A DNA stretch of 30,049 nucleotides from a virus (lineage: Duplodnaviria > Heunggongvirae > Uroviricota > Caudoviricetes): IMG/VR virus record IMGVR_UViG_2667528045_000005. One strand, given 5' to 3'. Below the pieces are notes generated by a model. The model did no database searches and was not told the origin of the DNA. It was given only the letters and a program-made list of their open reading frames with translations. Positions 4,111-30,049 of the stretch are shown here, in pieces; within the stretch, counting starts at the first letter, position 1; each line of letters opens with the position of its first letter. The translations under genes and the position numbers were made by a program.

Positions 4111-4590
4111 TGTGGTGTCCGCTACGCTGCAGCGCCTTTTCGCGCCATGTGATGAGCTCGGTCAGGCTCAGGGAATAGAGCTCTGATAGCGGCCAGTGGA
4201 ATATCACCGCGATATCCGCCATCAGGTCATCGGTCGACAGGTCGGGCGGGAAATCTACTCCGCCGAAGCCGGTGACAAAAAACCAATCACCTTAGCGGCC
4301 AGCGACAGCATATCGGGCAGGTTCATTGCGGTAAGCTCCTGCGCCGTAAGCGCGGGGTAGGTCATGCGTGGCAATACCTTAATCAGCGCATCGACTTCGG
4401 ACTGCGCCACCGCTGCCAGACTGACACCGCGCAGGGTACCGGCGTTCGGCTCAATCAGTGTGACTTTATCAATCGTCTGACCGGCGCGCTTAATCGGCTT
4501 GTCGAGGGTCACGACGTTCGGGTTTACGGTGTCAATTTCATTGCCAGCCATATCAACAAATTCAGCGGTTTTACGTGGTGCTTTTGCCAT
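4103..4590 (-). CDS. E': gpE+E' programmed -1 frameshift product
   Basis: Slippery TTTTTTG (minus strand, plus coords 4276-4282); -1 frame continues ...HWPLSELYSLSLTELITWREKALQRSGHHNE and stops at TAA 4103-4105, overlapping the T start codon, as in P2. Confidence 0.7.
4255..4590 (-). CDS. E: tail assembly chaperone gpE
   Basis: 111 aa ending GFLSPASAE; the GGT TTT TTG codons near the 3' end form the T6G slippery site. Confidence 0.85.
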   Translation of the reverse strand: MAKAPRKTAEFVDMAGNEIDTVNPNVVTLDKPIKRAGQTIDKVTLIEPNAGTLRGVSLAAVAQSEVDALIKVLPRMTYPALTAQELTAMNLPDMLSLAAKVIGFLSPASAE

Positions 4591-4653
4591 GATGTTTTTC
4601 TCTGCTCTGAATGGGGATTAATAACCGGCCAGCAGTGCTGACCGGTCAGGGAA

Positions 4654-5172
4654 TTACAGCCCGATTGCGCGGCGGTGCTGTTCCAGACGGTCGACGCCGT
4701 TCACCTTCTCAACCATGTTGACGGTATCGATTTCGATGACGTCGCTACCATCAATCGTGAGGCGGTAATAGGTGCATACGGTCGACAGTTTGGTCGAGGT
4801 GTTTTCACCCTGCTTATTCTCGCCGCCGTCGATTTCTTTATGACGGCCACGCATGACCACCTCGACCGCCACGATTTCGCCAGTGTCGTCACGTTGGTAA
4901 GAGCCAGCAAAACGCAACGGCACAGCGTCAGCACCCGGCGCGGCGTACTGCGCCCACAGCGCCACATCAGGCAGGCCACCGACAGACCATTCGACGGTGA
5001 GCGCATCATCGTCGAGACCAAGGTCAATCGCCGCCGCGCCATTCATGCCGCCGCCGCGATAGTTTTCGAGCTTGCGGGTCAGCTTCGGCAGCGTCACGGA
5101 TTCAACAACGCCCATGTAGCTAAGGCCGTCATTGAACATGTTCAGATATTTAAGTTTGCGGGGTAGTGCCAT
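4654..5172 (-). CDS. FII: tail tube protein gpFII
   Basis: 172 aa; MALPRKLKYLNMFNDG... matches P2 FII. Confidence 0.9.
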   Translation of the reverse strand: MALPRKLKYLNMFNDGLSYMGVVESVTLPKLTRKLENYRGGGMNGAAAIDLGLDDDALTVEWSVGGLPDVALWAQYAAPGADAVPLRFAGSYQRDDTGEIVAVEVVMRGRHKEIDGGENKQGENTSTKLSTVCTYYRLTIDGSDVIEIDTVNMVEKVNGVDRLEQHRRAIGL

Positions 5173-5187
5173 GTTGTTTCAGGCTCC

Positions 5188-6393
5188 TTAGCTGTTGACC
5201 GATTCGGCCAGATTTACCAGATATTTATCGGTGATACGCTGGCGCAGGGTCAGGCTTTCCAGTGGTGGAACCGGTGTATAGTCGTAGTCGATATACAGTT
5301 TCCCTGCCTTGAGGGTTTCCTTATCGTTCGATTCCTCGTCAAACCAGCATTCACCGTCCACGATGTAGCCGTTTGATTTCAGCTCGCGGAATTTGGCGTT
5401 AATGCCGTCGACAATGTCACGGATAAGTGATGCGGTGATGGGCTTATCGACCGCCCACATGTGCGCCTCGGCCATCGTGTCGGCCAGCACCTGCGCGGTG
5501 CGGGTGTAGTTCTCAAACAGGAAAAGCGGGTCATCAGAGCAGGTGCGGTTACCCCAAAAGCGGAAGCCATCCTTACGCACCAGTGTTGTGAGCCCGGCCT
5601 CGTTGAGCAGATCAGCATCGGTGCCGGATGCCTGCAAATCCCAAAACACTGACGCACTGATGCCGGTAACACCCTGCACGCCGATGTTAGACAGGGTTTT
5701 GTGCCAGCCGACGGTCTGGTCGATATAGGCACGCAGGCCGAGTGCGCGCGCAGTTGCGTATGCCGGTGCGGTGGCGTTTGTGGTGGTATCCCATGCAAGG
5801 AAATCAGGCCAGATGACCATCAGCTCGCGCTGGCTGAAATTCTCGCGATAGGCCATCGCCTCGGAAATGGTTTTACAACCCCATGCGCTGATATAGCCAA
5901 AGGCGCGCAGGCTGATACAGACCGAAGCAAGTGCGACTGCGACCTCTTTGGTATCGAGACCCGGCACGCCGAGAATGCGCGGCTTAACGCCGGTGACTGC
6001 TTCGGCAGTCAACAGCGCCTTGATGCCGGTATATTTACCGCTCTCATCCGTGCCGCCGATGATATTGGAAATGGTCTGCGCTTCGGCGTCTTCTCCGGTA
6101 CCTTCGGCAACACGCACGACAACTGTGACAGGTTTTGACTGGTCGGCGATGGCCTGCAGGGACGCGGCCAGCGTGCCTTTTTTACCGGCTTTCGCAATGG
6201 CGCTTTGCACATTGGTAATCAGTACCGGCTCGTTGAGGGGAAAGGTTGCCGCATCCGCATCGCTGGCTGTACAGACCATGCCGACGATTGCGGTTGCAAC
6301 AGTGGAAATGACGCGGGTGCCGTCGTTAATCTCAAGCACCTGCACGCCGTGGTGAAAATCACTCATCCGGTTAACTCCGTGGTTAGTGGGCAA
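5188..6393 (-). CDS. FI: contractile tail sheath protein gpFI
   Basis: 401 aa; position and sequence typical of P2 FI sheath. Confidence 0.9.
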   Translation of the reverse strand: MPTNHGVNRMSDFHHGVQVLEINDGTRVISTVATAIVGMVCTASDADAATFPLNEPVLITNVQSAIAKAGKKGTLAASLQAIADQSKPVTVVVRVAEGTGEDAEAQTISNIIGGTDESGKYTGIKALLTAEAVTGVKPRILGVPGLDTKEVAVALASVCISLRAFGYISAWGCKTISEAMAYRENFSQRELMVIWPDFLAWDTTTNATAPAYATARALGLRAYIDQTVGWHKTLSNIGVQGVTGISASVFWDLQASGTDADLLNEAGLTTLVRKDGFRFWGNRTCSDDPLFLFENYTRTAQVLADTMAEAHMWAVDKPITASLIRDIVDGINAKFRELKSNGYIVDGECWFDEESNDKETLKAGKLYIDYDYTPVPPLESLTLRQRITDKYLVNLAESVNS

Positions 6394-6464
6394 GTGTTAT
6401 TGTCCTGGCTGGTCTGTTGAGGGGCTATTTGTCAGTGTTGGGTGATGTCTGACACATTGAGACA

Positions 6465-6707
6465 TCAGCAACGGATGCGGGAAATTTTTTGTATAGCGTT
6501 GAGATACCCGAGGCGATCCAGTTTCCAGACCACAAGCGTATCGCCCTCTGACAAGGTTCTGAGTAACCTCTTTAGCCCCGGCCAGTCTGATGTTTTGCCG
6601 CTGATTTTATCTTCGAAAATCAGCTCGCATCCTGCGCACTCCAGTTCATTTCGCTGTAATGCGGTGTTCTGGTCATTTGTTGATACACGTACATAACCGA
6701 TAAACAT
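6465..6707 (-). pseudogene. truncated Hin/Gin/Pin-family serine DNA invertase (N-terminal ~67 aa only)
   Basis: MFIGYVRVSTNDQNTALQRNELECAGCELIFEDKISGK...GDTLVVWKLDRLG aligns with the Hin N-terminus (catalytic Ser in RVST present); homology stops after DRLG and the ORF ends 13 codons later; only ~70 bp remain before the FI start. Confidence 0.75.
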
Positions 6708-6761
6708 GAGAAATAACCCGGTAAAAAGTCGGGATCATGCCAACTGAACGGAATATCTGCA

Positions 6762-6787
6762 TTTTCTAAAAGGTTGGTTTGGGAGAA
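6762..6787. other. hix/gix-like 26-bp inversion crossover site (outer site)
   Basis: TTTTCTAAAAGG TT GGTTTGGGAGAA; its inner half is the exact inverted copy of the inner half of the site at 8660-8685; in frame with the start of the alternative fibre ORF. Confidence 0.6.
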
Positions 6788-7126
6788 GCGGCTAAAAGGA
6801 ATGTAGGGACAGGGGCGAATCAGATACCTGATATGGGTAGCTTCACGCTTTCTGTTTCAGGTACTGGATATCAAAAATTACCATCAGGTTTTATTCTTCA
6901 GTGGGGCTCAATCGGCGCACCAGGCATTGCACAGGATGTAGTAACCCATTTCCCGATTGCATTTCCAAACAGATGTCTGCGTGTTTTGGTCTCACAAGAC
7001 TACACACCAGATAGCGGGGCTGTTGGTTATATTGCCTGTGCAGGTTTTAGTCCCGACCCGGTTAAATTTATATCCAGAGCCAGTACTCCTGGCCTCGGCG
7101 CTTCATTTTTAGCGTTAGGCTGTTAA
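6779..7126 (+). CDS. alternative tail-fibre C-terminal variable segment (Sv'-like), silent in this orientation
   Basis: 115-aa ORF with no ATG (begins TTG inside the crossover site); reading frame continuous with the H constant part after inversion; contains a [11 protein letters not shown]-type fibre-tip sequence. Confidence 0.55.
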
Positions 7127-7147
7127 TTTAGCTATATGGAGTGAAAA

Positions 7148-7588
7148 ATGAATTACATATATTCCGCGACTACAAACTCTTTCTATCCGCTGGAGATGAA
7201 AGAGGATTACACTCAAGCTGACTCATGGCCAGATGATGCTGTTGAAGTTGATGAGCAAGTGTATATTGAGTTTTCCGGATTACCGCCGAAAGGAAAAATC
7301 CGTATCGCTGGAGAAAATGGTTTTCCTGCATGGTCTGAAATTCCACCACCAACACATGAGGAACAGATTGCTGCAGCCGAACTGGAAAAGCAGCAACTGA
7401 TTAATCAGGTCAACGATTATATGAACAGTAAACAATGGCCTGGTAAAGCCGCTATTGGTCGTCTGAAAGATGATGAACTGGCGCAATATAATTTGTGGCT
7501 GGATTATCTGGACGCACTGGAGCTGGTCGATACTTCCGGTGCGCCAGATATTGAATGGCCTACGCCTCCGGCAGTTCAGGCCAGATGA
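7148..7588 (+). CDS. tail fibre assembly protein (alternative, U'-like)
   Basis: 146 aa, Tfa-like C-terminus (LWLDYLDALELVDTSGAPDIEWPTPP); own GGAG RBS; convergent with and overlapping the 3' end of G. Confidence 0.8.
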   Translation: MNYIYSATTNSFYPLEMKEDYTQADSWPDDAVEVDEQVYIEFSGLPPKGKIRIAGENGFPAWSEIPPPTHEEQIAAAELEKQQLINQVNDYMNSKQWPGKAAIGRLKDDELAQYNLWLDYLDALELVDTSGAPDIEWPTPPAVQAR

Positions 7589-8162
7589 CATCCGGCGCGG
7601 TGCTGGTATCTGTTGCCGTCACCGCGTCAATGTAATCCAGCACAGCGTTAAGGCGGGTTGTTTCTGCCTGCGTCAGTTTACGTCCGGCCTGCAATTTCAG
7701 CTGAATCAGACTGATGGAGGCCATTGCAGTATCAATCAGCGACTGGCGCTGTGCTTCTGCTGCATCTACTGCTGCGCCGTGCTGTGCCTCGGTATCCGTC
7801 ACCCATTTCTCACCATCCCATTTATCGTATGGCGTTAACGGGGCGATAGTGGTTGTATTTTCATGGTAATCACCCGGAGCTGTGATTTCTTTTGATTCTC
7901 CTGTTTCAGTGCTATATACCGTTTCACCACGGTGGTCTGGCACATATACCCATGAGTTAAAATCTGCAGAACGGCAGATTGCATAACCAGCTTTATATGA
8001 GTCAGGAGCATCTAAACAGGAGCATGCCGGAATGCCGACACCCACAGCAAGATATTCAGTTGATGTGAAAATATATTCCCGTGTTTCACCATCATAGTTA
8101 TAAACAGTAATATTTCCTGCTTGGGTGGCGATAAATTCGTTATTTAATACGGCGTAATCCAT
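7560..8162 (-). CDS. G: tail fibre assembly protein gpG
   Basis: 200 aa; Tfa-family C-terminus (LDYIDAVTATDTSTAPDVIWPELPEA); immediately downstream of H. Confidence 0.85.
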   Translation of the reverse strand: MDYAVLNNEFIATQAGNITVYNYDGETREYIFTSTEYLAVGVGIPACSCLDAPDSYKAGYAICRSADFNSWVYVPDHRGETVYSTETGESKEITAPGDYHENTTTIAPLTPYDKWDGEKWVTDTEAQHGAAVDAAEAQRQSLIDTAMASISLIQLKLQAGRKLTQAETTRLNAVLDYIDAVTATDTSTAPDVIWPELPEA

Positions 8163-9280
8163 TATGCAGCCCTCACGATATACGCAAATGCCAGGTTCCG
8201 TGGTCTGGTTTCTTTAATTAAAGAGGAGGCATCAGGTGAACTCACTGATTCAGCACCATTTCTTCCACCAGTGGTATAAGTAAAAACTCTTTCACTGTTA
8301 GACCAGTAATCCACACCAACTGTTTTTGCTGATGAAAAAATGGTTTCATCAGATATAACCTGTTCTATTCCATACGGGATATTAGTAACTGACCCCACTT
8401 TTGTAGGTATTCCATGATTATGAGAAATTACTGCATGCTCTTGATTCGTTAATAAAGTACGACCGCTATCCACTCCACGCCCGTCATCCCAGCCACGAAT
8501 AAACTCACCACGTAAATCAGGCAATTTATTTGTCGGATAAGCCTTTGCCAGTTCCGGGTATTCTTCAGCAGAAAAAGCGGCACCGTTGCATTTCAGCCAG
8601 CCTGTTGGCGGAGTGGCGGAAGGCCACGGAACAGGCACGCCAACGGGTAATGCCGAACCTTCTCCCAAACCAAGGTTTTTAAGAACGTCGCCGGCCAGTC
8701 CCGCGTCAACCATTTCTTTCAGAGCATTAGCGATTAACGGGTACTGCTTGTGTGGATTGGCGGCCTCAACATGTTTTTTCATCAGGTCATCAGCATATCC
8801 TTTCACCTCGATAATCTTGTCGTCGACATACTGGCGCGTTGCCAGCACGACTGCCGGGTCGATTTTCAGGGTGATTGCCGATGTGCTCGACACAACCAGA
8901 ATCATGCGAATGGTCTGCGTGCGACCGCTTCCCTCCTGCAGTTGTGGCTTGTAGGTCTCCGGACAGTTCGCCACGGCAATCAGAATACCATCATCGTCAT
9001 AGAGACCAATCTCGCGGATCCAGAAACCACCTTCATTCTCGGGAATAATCTGTTCCGCGATAATCTGACTGGTATTGGCCGGGTCAACGGTCAGCAGGTT
9101 CAGCGGCGCGATGCGTTTCTGGTTAATGAGCTTCGTCTGCGCCGGGTCAGGGGTCGGCAACGTACCATTCGCATCACCGACGGCCATCTGCGTCAGGTTG
9201 AGTTTGGTACCGAGTGCCGCCGCGTTCGCCAGCCGCGCCGCGCCCTGATTGGTCAGAATGGCAAAATATTTTGCGGTCAT
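8162..9280 (-). CDS. H: tail fibre protein gpH (constant N-terminus + current variable C-terminus)
   Basis: 372 aa; N-terminus aligns with P2 gpH (MAVGD...AVANCPETYKP...SGR.QT.RM..VVSS); a hix-like site lies within the coding sequence at residues ~199-207. Confidence 0.85.
   Translation of the reverse strand: MTAKYFAILTNQGAARLANAAALGTKLNLTQMAVGDANGTLPTPDPAQTKLINQKRIAPLNLLTVDPANTSQIIAEQIIPENEGGFWIREIGLYDDDGILIAVANCPETYKPQLQEGSGRTQTIRMILVVSSTSAITLKIDPAVVLATRQYVDDKIIEVKGYADDLMKKHVEAANPHKQYPLIANALKEMVDAGLAGDVLKNLGLGEGSALPVGVPVPWPSATPPTGWLKCNGAAFSAEEYPELAKAYPTNKLPDLRGEFIRGWDDGRGVDSGRTLLTNQEHAVISHNHGIPTKVGSVTNIPYGIEQVISDETIFSSAKTVGVDYWSNSERVFTYTTGGRNGAESVSSPDASSLIKETRPRNLAFAYIVRAA
8660..8685. other. 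hix/gix-like 26-bp inversion crossover site (inside H)
   Basis: TTCTCCCAAACC AA GGTTTTTAAGAA; about 21/26 identical to Salmonella hixL as I remember it; encodes VLKNLGLGE of H. Confidence 0.6.
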
Positions 9281-9885
9281 GCGTTCACTCTCAGGTTATC
9301 AATCAAATGGATGGCCGAGGCCGGGTAATATTCACCGCCGACGACAATCTCCTCGGGGGTGTAGGGGTAAACAGTCAGCGCGTCGCCGTGATAGCATCCC
9401 GCGCCGACATACAGTTCGCCGGTCGAGCTCAGACTGATAGCCAGCCCGGTCAGGTGGCGACTTGCCGGTTTGGCGTCTTCAATCAGGCGCTCAAGCTCCT
9501 GATACATTTCGTCAGTGATGCCGCTGTCGAGGACGCCAACAACGAGGCGGAATGTGCCTGGCTCCTCGTCGAGTTGCCACCACTCGCGCACCTCAATCAG
9601 AAAGCCGAGCGGCTCGACGACCCGACGCAATGCGCTGATGGTGCCTTTGTGCTGATGGACGAAAAACGAGGACGCGCAGACGTTGCGCTTTGTCGCCTCC
9701 GGCCATTTCTCATCCCACCTGTCGACCGACAGCGCCCACGCCAGATACGGCAGCAGCTTTACCGGGCAGGTGCGCCAGTTCCACAGGGTGCGCAGCGGTA
9801 CCGGCACGCGCTGAATCTCAGAGAACGCAGCGGCGGCGGCAACCTCCAGCGGCGACGAGCCAACGGGTAATAGCCGGTCACTCAT
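9277..9885 (-). CDS. I: baseplate assembly protein gpI
   Basis: 202 aa; position and sequence consistent with P2 gpI. Confidence 0.85.
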   Translation of the reverse strand: MSDRLLPVGSSPLEVAAAAAFSEIQRVPVPLRTLWNWRTCPVKLLPYLAWALSVDRWDEKWPEATKRNVCASSFFVHQHKGTISALRRVVEPLGFLIEVREWWQLDEEPGTFRLVVGVLDSGITDEMYQELERLIEDAKPASRHLTGLAISLSSTGELYVGAGCYHGDALTVYPYTPEEIVVGGEYYPASAIHLIDNLRVNA

Positions 9886-20669: not shown

Positions 20670-21674
20670 ATGGGCGCGGAGATTAATATTTTGGAAACTG
20701 ATTTTAAAATAACCCTCGAAGGTTTCGCTACTGAGCAAGAAGCAAATAATATCGGTAATTTCACACTAGAAGCTATCCGAGCTTTAACAAAAAATCTCAA
20801 TCTTGATATCTCCAAATTAAAATGCGTGATTGTTTCCTATAACTTCAGTGAAGCTCTTCAAAAGGTAACATCCTCTTACCAACACAAATCCCCTAGTTCA
20901 TTTACCAATAGCAAACAGGGCGCAGCCGTCGGGCAGTTAGTAACAAAAATTGGCAATGATGGGCTATGTGAAGAATATACCCTTGTGCTATCGATTGATT
21001 TTTTTGTTGAGCTTTTCAATGATGGTAGCTTCTTAAAACTGAAAGAAGAAGGATACCTCGCAGTCATCCATCGCATTCACCATGAATTAGTGCACGTACA
21101 TGAAAAAAACTTACTAACATGCTTAGCCCAAAACTTTACAGTCAACGAGTATGGTAGCGCGCTTCTTATCTCAGCCACGCGTGCATGGTCTGAATATCTC
21201 GCTAATTACATGTCTTCGGGGTCTGCCCCTCAAGAAACTATCGATTTATTTTTAGAGAATCTTGACACTGTTGTAAATGAAGTATCTGACGAGATTGAAA
21301 AACTCATCTGGGGTTATAAGTACGGTAATATTTCTCTGAATGACATGTATCTTGAAGTAAAAAAACGTATCAGGCTAATCATCAACTCTTATGCTTATGC
21401 GATGGGTTATGTCCATTCTCTAAACATCAATATTAAAGAATACGATCCAAAGCTATCCCTTACACTATCCAACTCAAAGATAAGATATCAATTATCAGAA
21501 TTAGGCATTGCTTTTCAGAATCTTTATGGGAAGTTTAATGACCAGCACATTACAGGTTTTGGTGATTTTCGGGAGATAACAATAATCATTGATGAAATAT
21601 TCAAGCAGTTTGGGCTTGTTTTAGAGTGTCCCGATTGGTCTGGCGACGGTGAACTCTACATACATGTAAATTAG
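20670..21674 (+). CDS. hypothetical protein, AT-rich orphan gene; HRIHHELVHVHE segment (HExxH-like or HEPN-like)
   Basis: 334-aa intact ORF; markedly lower GC than flanking phage genes; inserted between portal Q and cos. Confidence 0.6.
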   Translation: MGAEINILETDFKITLEGFATEQEANNIGNFTLEAIRALTKNLNLDISKLKCVIVSYNFSEALQKVTSSYQHKSPSSFTNSKQGAAVGQLVTKIGNDGLCEEYTLVLSIDFFVELFNDGSFLKLKEEGYLAVIHRIHHELVHVHEKNLLTCLAQNFTVNEYGSALLISATRAWSEYLANYMSSGSAPQETIDLFLENLDTVVNEVSDEIEKLIWGYKYGNISLNDMYLEVKKRIRLIINSYAYAMGYVHSLNINIKEYDPKLSLTLSNSKIRYQLSELGIAFQNLYGKFNDQHITGFGDFREITIIIDEIFKQFGLVLECPDWSGDGELYIHVN

Positions 21675-26244: not shown

Positions 26245-26583
26245 TTAATTCGGCATGGTTAGCCGTTTGGGAAATAAGCTCACTACTGCACGAAAATGAT
26301 TCATCGCTGTAATAAGCGCCTTTTTCTCGTCAGTAGTCAGCTCACTTAATTCGAGTTCATGACGAGCCGCCGGTATTTTTGCCAGAAAGAAAATAGCGGC
26401 CAGCGCCCGATTATTTTCTTCAAATTGTGGGTCACGTTTATCGCGCATATCATCGACAAAACGTTCAACCTCTTTCCAGCTATCGCCCCAATATCTCGCG
26501 CGCAATTCGGCAACATGATTGAGACCGGCCAGACGTTCACCCGCTTTTAGCGGAACAGTCGCGGAAACAGCTTCGATAGCCAT
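26245..26583 (-). CDS. hypothetical early protein (P2 orf80-like)
   Basis: 112 aa, positional. Confidence 0.5.
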   Translation of the reverse strand: MAIEAVSATVPLKAGERLAGLNHVAELRARYWGDSWKEVERFVDDMRDKRDPQFEENNRALAAIFFLAKIPAARHELELSELTTDEKKALITAMNHFRAVVSLFPKRLTMPN

Positions 26584-28636: not shown

Positions 28637-28975
28637 ATGAAAAAGTTTATATTTGCGATAGTCTGCATTGCACTTTCTTCCTCAGCCATAGCCGCTGAGA
28701 AGTTTAAAGAGATAGACGGCGCTGCATATGGTGACAAGTGGCCTCTAACCTTTGAAAAGGCAAAGGTATCATGTGTTAACCGTGCTTATGCTTTTGTGTA
28801 TGACATCAAAACTGATGATAGATATCCTCTGAATGGCATGGCGGTAGATGCTGTTAAATCAGGAAAGCTGGAGGGGTCTAACTTAGATGACGTATGGAAG
28901 GATGACCCTGAGTATGACGGCGTTAAAATTTCAATTTCACCGGTGATTGATGCCGCTACAGCCCTTTGTAATTAA
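28637..28975 (+). CDS. secreted small protein of unknown function (signal peptide), moron between cI and int
   Basis: 112 aa; MKKFIFAIVCIALSSSAIA signal peptide; two Cys in mature part; lower GC than the phage core. Confidence 0.6.
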   Translation: MKKFIFAIVCIALSSSAIAAEKFKEIDGAAYGDKWPLTFEKAKVSCVNRAYAFVYDIKTDDRYPLNGMAVDAVKSGKLEGSNLDDVWKDDPEYDGVKISISPVIDAATALCN

Positions 28976-28999: not shown

Positions 29000-30049
29000 A
29001 TGACTGTAAGTAAACAAAAAAGTGGAAAATGGTTGTGTGAACTCTATCCAAATGGTCGAGAAGGGCGGCGTATACGTCGGCAGTTCAATACCAAAGGTGA
29101 GGCCGAGGCATTTGAAGCATTTACCAAAAGCGAGAGTGAAGATAAGCCGTGGCTCGGCAAGAAAGAAGACCGCCGACGCTTAAGCGAGATTATTCAGCTT
29201 TGGCACAATTTGCACGGTCAAGCGTTAGTCGCCAGTAAGTCGAGATTTGCAAAGCTTCAAATCGTATGTAATGGACTTGGCGACCCGATTGCATCTCGCC
29301 TTACCGCGAAAGACTGGGCTCATTATCGTGACCGTCGATTACGTGGTGAAATAGACAATGGTTATCATAAAGACCCCTCGAAATGGATCGCCAAACCTAT
29401 AACCGTCAATCGCGAACAACAATACCTAGAAGCAGTGTTTAATGAGCTCCGCCGGTTAGGGGAGTGGAGCCTACCCAATCCACTTGATGGGATCCGAGTA
29501 TTCAAAGAAGCTGAGAAAGAAATGTCCTGGCTAACTTTGTCTCAGCTCCCGGAGCTGTTTCGAGCCTGCGAGCAATACGGCAAAGAAGACCTCACCATGA
29601 TTGTTAAGGTGTGCCTTGCAACCGGCGCTCGATGGGGGGAAGCGGAGAGATTGACCCGACCTCAACTTTCTCCATATAAACTAACGTTCACCAAAACCAA
29701 AGGTAAGAAGAATCGCACAGTTCCTATTCCTAAATGGCTGTACGACGAGTTGTCCGTACGTCAAGGCAGAATGTTTAAACCCTGCTATCAGGAGTTTAAA
29801 AAGATGCTCAAACTAACGAATATTGAATTGACGGAAGGGCAGAAGACGCACGTTTTGCGTCATACTTTTGGTGCGCATTTTATGATGAACGGAGGGAATA
29901 TACTGGTGCTGCAGAAAATTCTCGGACATGCCAATATTCGAGAAACAATGAAGTATGCGCACTTTGCTCCTGACCACCTTGAACAAGCTGTAACCCTCAA
30001 TCCGTTATCGCTGTATGTTGGCGACAATGTGGCGGCAGAGGTTGCATAA
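29000..30049 (+). CDS. int: tyrosine integrase
   Basis: 349 aa; C-terminal catalytic signature (HVLRHTF...GHANIRETMKYAHF); ends exactly at the window edge. Confidence 0.9.
   Translation: MTVSKQKSGKWLCELYPNGREGRRIRRQFNTKGEAEAFEAFTKSESEDKPWLGKKEDRRRLSEIIQLWHNLHGQALVASKSRFAKLQIVCNGLGDPIASRLTAKDWAHYRDRRLRGEIDNGYHKDPSKWIAKPITVNREQQYLEAVFNELRRLGEWSLPNPLDGIRVFKEAEKEMSWLTLSQLPELFRACEQYGKEDLTMIVKVCLATGARWGEAERLTRPQLSPYKLTFTKTKGKKNRTVPIPKWLYDELSVRQGRMFKPCYQEFKKMLKLTNIELTEGQKTHVLRHTFGAHFMMNGGNILVLQKILGHANIRETMKYAHFAPDHLEQAVTLNPLSLYVGDNVAAEVA

Follow-up and report, generated by a model that had tools for sequence, protein, structure and literature searches.

The window analysed here, a stretch of 30,049 nt from an Escherichia coli prophage, very probably holds a genuine two-state invertible tail-fibre segment of the Pin/Gin type, now an orphan substrate that depends for flipping on a related serine invertase acting in trans. 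Its crossover sites and reading frames are in place, its own invertase is dead, and both orientations occur in otherwise identical DNA.

A two-state fibre cassette in a P2-type tail module

The segment belongs to a P2-family prophage of E. coli resembling PSP3 and 186; within the first 25 kb of the window, 80-90% matched PSP3-like phages, at 89-96% DNA identity. Based on the Pfam labels of the genes called in L010 and L011, identical to the window, the gene order was V-W-J-I-H-G-(Z/fun position)-FI-FII-E-T-U-D, which is that of the P2-family (Peduoviridae) tail module. The segment was located between G and FI, the Z/fun position, and comprised the following features together with the fibre gene.

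6774-8673: invertible segment, from dinucleotide to dinucleotide, 1900 bp
8162-9280, minus strand: tail-fibre gene H (Pfam Phage_tail_fib and Collar)
8674-9280, minus strand: constant N-terminal part of H, residues 1-207 (Phage_tail_fib on 1-150)
8162-8659, minus strand: variable C-terminus of H, currently expressed (Pfam Collar; StfE-like)
7560-8162, minus strand: gene G, tail-fibre assembly chaperone, currently expressed (Pfam Caudo_TAP; TfaE-like)
7148-7588, plus strand: alternative tail-fibre assembly chaperone (Caudo_TAP, E 9e-38; TfaP-like C-terminus)
6776-7126, plus strand: alternative fibre C-terminus, lacking its own start codon (Pfam Gp53-like_C; Pfam-scanned ORF 6770-7123)

The constant part of H, which ends in NLGLGE, is not included in the segment and is expressed from the late operon upstream. 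Inside the segment the alternative Tfa converges on G, with an overlap of 29 nt between their 3' ends, and the alternative fibre frame is silent in the present orientation, its upstream extension being blocked by a TAA at 6767-6769. When the segment was inverted in silico at the central dinucleotide, a continuous ORF of 319 aa (H') was obtained, with ...VLKNLGLGE joined to the alternative tip, which ends in ...ALGC. In both states the fibre N-terminus is constant and external to the segment; promoterless tips with their own chaperones lie inside in opposite orientations, and the fusion is in frame each time. An earlier note on this DNA had proposed a switch of the Mu G, P1 C or e14 P design located in H within a P2-type tail module, and the architecture matches that design. 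Its minus-strand tip and Tfa and its plus-strand tip and Tfa, the tip lacking an ATG, were all recovered by Pfam and ORF analysis, and the fusion of the constant part to the alternative tip was reproduced by the 319-aa product. The assignment of the two tips to different Pfam families (Collar versus Gp53-like_C) suggests different receptors; inversion may alter host range, and receptor specificity presumably changes.

The exact 372-aa H was found as WP_057078433.1, and exact matches to the two Tfa proteins of the window came from the source contig alone. Pfam and PADLOC scans of the cargo ORFs yielded nothing usable. Relatives differed in the content of the cassette.

Crossover sites

The segment is bounded by two 26-bp sites of the hix/pix type, imperfectly palindromic and inverted relative to each other.

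8660-8685: crossover site inside H, TTCTCCCAAACC AA GGTTTTTAAGAA, central dinucleotide 8672-8673
6762-6787: crossover site adjoining the invertase remnant, TTTTCTAAAAGG TT GGTTTGGGAGAA, central dinucleotide 6774-6775

The pair, found at exactly the positions proposed earlier with the inner half and dinucleotide in common, ranked first among the inverted repeats of the region (I1: 21 nt, 90% complementary). The central dinucleotide (TT/AA) and the inner halves were identical at both sites, the half-sites fitted TTNTCNNAAACC, and the repeat common to the two sites amounted to only ~15 bp (TTGGTTTGGGAGAAG). The inner half GGTTTGGGAGAA occurred twice in the 30-kb window, once per strand, versus 0.09 copies expected from shuffles, and at least two copies were seen in 0 of 100 shuffles. 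Read on the coding strand, the site at 8660-8685 gives ...KNLGLGE. The inner half and central dinucleotide of the site at 8660-8685 are those of the e14 pix sites and match the repeat TTGGTTTGGGAGAAGG that PMC12529663 gives for e14; the half-sites of gix differ. In related genomes the 6762-6787 site is split: its outer half goes with the flank, and its inner half swaps together with all the sequence beyond it.

By 26-mer match, no third good crossover site was present in the 30-kb window; a 26-mer at 29687-29712 had 7 mismatches and was judged to be a chance match. A shufflon, with multiple sites and an Rci tyrosine recombinase, was also rejected, given that there are just two sites and that the remnant is a serine recombinase.

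A truncated invertase and its 5' region

6465-6707, minus strand: remnant of a Pin/Gin-type serine invertase, 80 aa (Pfam Resolvase, residues 3-67 only)
6623-6686: putative Fis-dependent recombinational enhancer, gene nt 22-85, in the 5' part of the remnant

An internal deletion was defined by alignment with pinE, gin and a full-length 197-aa invertase, which exists in the relative L002. At 6506/6507, codon 67 is followed directly by the final ~12 codons of the gene; ~110 codons in between are lost, and the protein keeps residues 1-67 of about 190. The lost part contains the remainder of the catalytic domain, the E-helix and the HTH; judged by what is left, the prophage's own invertase is dead and without catalytic capacity. 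A search of 5426 complete E. coli genomes found the same breakpoint in 35, whose sequence across it matched that of the window at 95-100% identity. Independent frameshifts were seen in the remnants of relatives.

The 5' part of the remnant may retain the enhancer. In the window, as in e14 and Mu, the invertase ATG is 67.5 nt away from the centre of the site, and a 20-nt block (GTATCAACAAATGACCAGAA), ~95 nt from the site centre, is identical in DNA between the window, pinE and gin. Two candidate G-N13-C 15-mers have centres 49 nt apart, not 48 nt as in Hin. For Hin, the enhancer and a hix site are separated by ~100 bp (PMC3798978), and the enhancer of gin is placed inside the invertase gene by the title of Kahmann 1985, cited in PMC3798978. 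Few variants were found among 13 remnants compared for avoidance of the putative enhancer.

Both orientations occur in near-identical DNA

The earlier note had called the cassette frozen. As an explanation, a frozen relic would have undergone no inversion since the deletion of its invertase, and the orientation in the window would be a fixed historical state. The dead cis invertase fits this reading, and the description holds as far as the internal deletion, which leaves 67 N-terminal residues, makes that enzyme non-functional; it fails in that the element occurs in both orientations. The exact 319-aa inverted product was present in public E. coli data as WP_192517053.1, about 20 further proteins were at least 98% identical over at least 97% of the length of H', most of them at full length, and full-length H' proteins were found on more than 60 contigs. 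The prophage lineage of the window was itself seen with the segment flipped in one metagenome scaffold and one E. coli genome (L012 and L013). Flanks differed from those of the window at 1/6453 and 0/8607 positions in L012 and at 3/6516 and 0/8607 in L013, the segment was inverted in each, and both carried the same 80-aa invertase remnant.

Two pairs of near-clonal complete genomes, both with the deletion allele of the window, differed only by a perfect inversion. The examined flanks (2 kb and 4 kb) were identical between EC12 and EC15 and between CH425 and CH423, the latter pair having a frameshift in the remnant besides the deletion. The 1871-bp segments of the EC pair and the 1867-bp segments of the CH pair were exact reverse complements with 0 mismatches. 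In both pairs the segments were joined at the central dinucleotide, with the junctions within the 26-bp sites. In the deletion-allele set of 35 complete genomes, the tip beside the remnant was of the GEAAKR type in 15 and a different one in 20. Because one breakpoint is common to all 35, the deletion is old, and since isolates with identical examined flanks (2 kb and 4 kb) nevertheless differ in orientation, the inversions post-date the deletion. A frozen relic is therefore quite unlikely.

The orientation differences might instead stem from RecA-dependent recombination between short inverted repeats, or from import of a flipped cassette from another prophage, with no site-specific inversion. 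Exchange of this kind does occur. L012 differed from the window at 21/1900 positions inside the segment versus 1/15060 in the flanks, and this far greater divergence of the interior indicates homologous exchange inside the segment; the varying cassette content of relatives points the same way. Six of the differences fell in the alternative-tip region and are all synonymous, because L012 encodes an identical H'. However, efficient RecA recombination usually needs more homology than the ~15 bp shared here, and a foreign cassette would be expected to bring differences along with it, whereas the two independent clone pairs were perfect reverse complements with junctions inside sites whose core matches that of a proven invertase substrate exactly. 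We regard recombination or import without site-specific inversion as very improbable.

Assembly artefacts were weighed as well. At least 20 draft-assembly contigs stopped exactly after ...NLGLGE, and such breaks at the site indicate that assemblers have difficulty there. Assembly of closed genomes, however, is not misled by a 26-bp repeat; two independent studies supplied four closed, complete-level genomes with clean junctions, and the contigs with full-length H' number more than 60. It is thus extremely improbable that the two orientations were created by assembly.

Comparison with known invertible segments

The closest counterpart was the P segment of e14 (PinE; stfP-tfaP / tfaE-stfE), of which the segment here is a mosaic homologue. 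The crossover core and dinucleotide (TT GGTTTGGGAGAA) are the same, and the layout is shared: the fibre N-terminus is constant and external, and the segment contains two tips and a convergent pair of Tfa genes. G was 89.5% identical to TfaE of e14, the tip of H was 54.5% identical to the stfE fragment, the alternative Tfa was 59.8% identical to TfaP over 102 aa, and the 67 N-terminal residues kept by the remnant resemble PinE. In contrast, the alternative tip here is Gp53-like and has just a weak relationship to StfP, at 26% identity, the e14 segment measures 1797 bp as opposed to 1900 bp and resides in a lambdoid remnant instead of a P2-type contractile-tail module, and the adjoining invertase gene is internally deleted here.

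Invertible loci of P2-like prophages, among which is the fin locus of Fels-2, an invertible tail-fibre locus, share the phage family and the logic of the present segment. For the P2-like prophages of EPEC E2348/69, experiments detected inversion of tail-fibre loci inside single cultures (Goldberg et al. 2014, PMC4272514), and a DNA invertase is 'often' found, with inversion of adjacent genes, at the Z/fun hotspot of P2-like prophages, the position also occupied here (bioRxiv 10.1101/2024.10.15.618418). One EPEC locus has three sites and shufflon-like behaviour, whereas the segment here has two, and the present lineage occurs in both orientations despite having lost the invertase core.

The G segment of Mu (Gin) and the C segment of P1 (Cin) follow the same design with 26-bp sites. 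The Mu site also encodes an NLGL motif at the boundary between constant and variable parts (...IQNLGLQE in Mu, NLGLGE here), and Mu shares the site-to-ATG distance and the conserved 5' coding block. On the other hand, the gix half-sites of Mu (TTATCCAAAACC TC GGTTTACAGGAA) are unlike those here, the tips of Mu and P1 are unrelated to the present ones, their invertase is intact, and the Mu segment spans 3 kb.

Proposed inversion in trans

Since the prophage's own invertase is dead while the sites are intact, as is the 5' stretch of the gene that holds the Fis-dependent enhancer in Hin/Gin systems, the segment would be an orphan substrate inverted in trans. H is read from outside the segment, its constant 207 residues ending in the NLGLGE encoded by the crossover site. 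The present orientation yields H with a collar-type (StfE-like) tip followed by the TfaE-like chaperone, and inversion between the 26-bp sites replaces them by the Gp53-like tip and the TfaP-like chaperone. Flipping is most likely carried out by enzymes from other prophages, a PinE-type or PinQ/PinR-type enzyme being a plausible candidate.

Potential sources were common. A chimeric query (anchor plus the internal region of pinE) was compared with an anchor-only control, and its matches were counted as invertase-like loci. At least one locus matching the invertase part missing from the remnant was present in 34 of the 35 deletion-allele chromosomes. The remaining one, AST217, had no other invertase-like locus, which would fit a frozen relic. 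In the source strain (GCA_001420075.1) the segment could be locked in that host.

The P segment of e14 is inverted by PinE, PinQ and PinR, of which PinQ comes from another prophage (PMC12529663), and Fin of Fels-2 acts on the H segment of Salmonella according to Kutsukake 2006, as cited in PMC4272514 and PMC12529663. In both cases the invertase of one prophage flips a segment of another element, as proposed here. These targets, however, keep an invertase of their own (PinE, Hin), and the dependence in trans would be obligatory for the present segment. pinQ and pinR are reportedly induced by phage attack.

Two further readings were considered, and we hold them to be unlikely. Loss of the invertase core may represent a stable 'client' state, in which the prophage retains its sites and the putative enhancer and leaves switching to the PinE, PinQ or PinR of other resident prophages, or the variants of H may be used by the host as StfE2-like receptor blockers. 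A client state, if true, would link tip choice to the state of the prophage community within the host.

Implications

Invertible fibre cassettes in P2-like prophages (PMC4272514; bioRxiv 10.1101/2024.10.15.618418) and trans-acting Pin invertases are already published, and the locus otherwise follows a textbook mechanism at a position already described for such prophages. What it adds to recent reports of cross-talk between prophage invertases is a probable natural case of obligatory dependence in trans. For annotation and host-range prediction, finding a truncated invertase beside an invertible fibre cassette does not justify calling the switch locked. Orientation can still vary when a compatible invertase is in the cell, and the receptor-binding tip of the induced phage can therefore vary too. 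The interior of the segment, moreover, swaps alleles much faster than its flanks.

Organization of the fibre-tip cassette

The neighbouring genes of the tail-fibre gene H were those of the P2 set (V, W, J, I, H, G, then FI, FII, E, T, U, D), and across 80-90% of its first 25 kb the window was 89-96% identical to PSP3-like Peduoviridae. Contig LIVF01000002.1 of E. coli GCA_001420075.1 and the window were identical in sequence.

Features of the fibre locus
6465-6707, minus strand: invertase remnant, matching the Resolvase catalytic domain over its first half only
About 6623-6686: putative enhancer region, upstream of the deletion junction at 6506, proposed from position and conservation
6762-6787: crossover site near the remnant, TTTTCTAAAAGG TT GGTTTGGGAGAA, by direct sequence reading
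6770-7123, plus strand: alternative fibre tip without a start codon (Gp53-like_C)
7148-7588, plus strand: tail-fibre assembly chaperone (Caudo_TAP)
7560-8162, minus strand: tail-fibre assembly chaperone (Caudo_TAP)
8162-9280, minus strand: H, 372 aa, with an N-terminal Phage_tail_fib domain and a Collar domain
8660-8685: crossover site inside H, TTCTCCCAAACC AA GGTTTTTAAGAA, by direct sequence reading

Both crossover sites lay where the earlier note had placed them, and the pair was the top inverted repeat within 6300-9400. The 30-kb window held exactly two copies of the 12-nt inner half-site, one on each strand, where dinucleotide-preserving shuffles predict 0.09. When the segment between the sites (6774-8673) was inverted in silico at the central dinucleotides, the constant part of H (...VLKNLGLGE) was joined in frame to the alternative tip, giving the unbroken 319-aa ORF H'; the note had predicted the in-frame fusion. 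Its proposal of an invertible fibre-tip cassette in H was thus right, with two sites, two chaperones, a start-less tip and an in-frame H'. A relaxed 26-mer scan of the window gave no third credible crossover site, indicating a two-state switch, and a shufflon was rejected on this ground. One weak site-like 26-mer within the integrase ORF (29687-29712, TTCACCAAAACC AA AGGTAAGAAGAA; 7 mismatches to the idealised site, left half good, right half poor) is probably due to chance.

Both orientations occur in nature

The cassette had been described as frozen. This description did not hold, since the exact in-silico H' exists in public E. coli data (WP_192517053.1, 319 aa), and inverted segments were found in two related records and two clone pairs. 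About 20 more proteins matched H' with 98% identity or better across 97% or more of its length, mostly full length, and one of them was present on 56 contigs. The metagenome scaffold L012 differed from the window at 1/6453 flanking positions on the left and 0/8607 on the right and carried the same 80-aa remnant, but its 1900-nt segment was inverted. In E. coli GCA_014862045.1 (L013; flank differences at 3/6516 and 0/8607) the segment was inverted too and carried a different collar-type tip.

We further compared near-clonal pairs of complete genomes in which both members carry the deletion allele of the invertase gene, joined at 6506/6507: EC12 versus EC15 (Hangzhou) and CH425 versus CH423 (Islamabad), the latter differing by at most 5 bp in genome size. 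Flanks were identical over the 2 kb and 4 kb examined (BLAST alignments of ~2.2 kb and ~4.4 kb at 100% identity), and the segments of 1871 bp and 1867 bp were perfect reverse complements. The outer half-sites remained with the flanks, and the exchange covered everything from the central dinucleotide on. RecA recombination or import of a cassette could also yield such orientation differences, but is unlikely given a shared repeat of only ~15 bp and reverse complements with 0 mismatches in two independent pairs. An assembly artefact is likewise unlikely, as the four genomes are closed and complete-level. Among 35 genomes with the deletion allele, the tip adjoining the remnant was of the GEAAKR type in 15 and another tip in 20. 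At least 20 draft E. coli contigs (~35-36 kb) stopped exactly at the crossover site, cutting H after ...NLGLGE, and contigs ending at the site yielded partial homologues of 8660-9280 (P0006, P0007, P0009 and P0016). These ends are consistent with both orientations being present within the cultures sequenced but are not decisive, as a repeat that begins at the site and is shared with other prophages could give the same result.

The inversions post-date loss of the invertase

The remnant was aligned with the full-length 197-aa recombinase of the related record L002, pinE and gin. The 6506/6507 junction joins codons 1-67 (through ...KLDRLG) to the final dozen codons (cf. ...STLYKKFPA), removing the remainder of the catalytic domain, the E-helix and the helix-turn-helix. 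Two independent frameshifts were seen in the remnants of relatives: a gain of 4 nt (ATCA) at gene nt 116 and the loss of 1 nt at nt 129. Both CH425 and CH423 had the -1 frameshift. With core domains deleted and frameshifts accumulating independently, the remnant protein is expected to lack function, and judged from its sequence the adjacent invertase gene is dead. The breakpoint was present in 35/5426 complete E. coli genomes and in the phage record vB_EcoM-613R3. The deletion is common to genomes that show 95-100% identity with the window over this stretch, while orientation varied among isolates whose flanks were identical; the invertase was therefore lost before these inversions took place.

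A probable enhancer in cis and a proposed invertase in trans

In the Hin system the enhancer is located ~100 bp away from a hix site (PMC3798978), and the gin enhancer is placed within the invertase gene by the title of Kahmann 1985, cited therein. Site centre and ATG were 67.5 nt apart in the window, e14 and Mu alike, and gene nt 22-41 (GTATCAACAAATGACCAGAA), centred ~95 nt from the site, had the same DNA sequence in the window, pinE and gin, synonymous positions included. An enhancer is therefore probably kept at about 6623-6686. As this region is upstream of the 6506 junction, the sites and the probable enhancer would stay in cis, and the protein alone must come from elsewhere. Both frameshifts fell downstream of the putative enhancer (nt 22-85), events too few for a test of constraint.

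The inner half-site and central dinucleotide were those of the e14 pix sites, matching the published P segment repeat TTGGTTTGGGAGAAGG (PMC12529663). That segment is reported to be inverted by PinE, PinQ and PinR, PinQ belonging to a different prophage (PMC12529663); as recounted there, PinE also acts on the Mu G and Salmonella H segments, and Fin of Fels-2 on the Salmonella H segment. We infer that the segment, with sites of the e14 type, would be flipped in trans by an invertase encoded elsewhere. Further loci were counted with a chimeric query (a 381-nt anchor plus, on the opposite strand, the 300 nt of pinE missing from the remnant), with the anchor alone as control. Of the 35 deletion-allele chromosomes, 34 had one or more additional loci that match this missing stretch (3 in EC12 and 2 each in EC15, CH425 and CH423). 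A truly locked relic is possible only where the host has no compatible invertase.

Relation to known systems

The segment is homologous to the e14 P segment in mosaic fashion: G shares 89.5% identity with TfaE, the current H tip shares 54.5% with StfE, and the alternative Tfa shares 59.8% with TfaP. Tips and Tfa alleles differed among relatives that have the same flanks, and allele exchange with other prophage cassettes seems to be much faster in the segment interior than in the rest of the prophage. Between the window (noted at 6886-7864) and L012 there were 21 substitutions in the 1900-nt segment versus 1 in 15 kb of flanks; the 6 that fall in the alternative tip must be synonymous, as H' has the same protein sequence in both. 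Invertible fibre loci have been demonstrated experimentally in EPEC P2-like prophages (PMC4272514), a DNA invertase accompanied by inversion of adjacent genes is called frequent in P2-like phages at the Z/fun hotspot (bioRxiv 10.1101/2024.10.15.618418), and programmed-inversion targets are enriched in tail-fibre genes (PMC9881135). The kind of system is thus already known; its sole twist would be the obligatory dependence on a foreign invertase, for which there are close precedents as well.

Other loci

A 334-aa ORF (20670-21674, plus strand) between portal gene Q and replication gene A had no match in Pfam or PADLOC. In P2-like phages the Q-A interval is the tin/old cargo hotspot, which makes this ORF a candidate accessory or defence gene. 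L015, another relative, carried an extra gene for a 278-aa pentapeptide-repeat protein at L015 positions 4535-5371, between tail-completion gene S and baseplate gene V, that was absent from the window. DUF2511 and DUF5347 proteins were encoded in the early region at 28637-28975 (plus strand) and 26245-26583 (minus strand), adjoining the integrase and a CII-like regulator.
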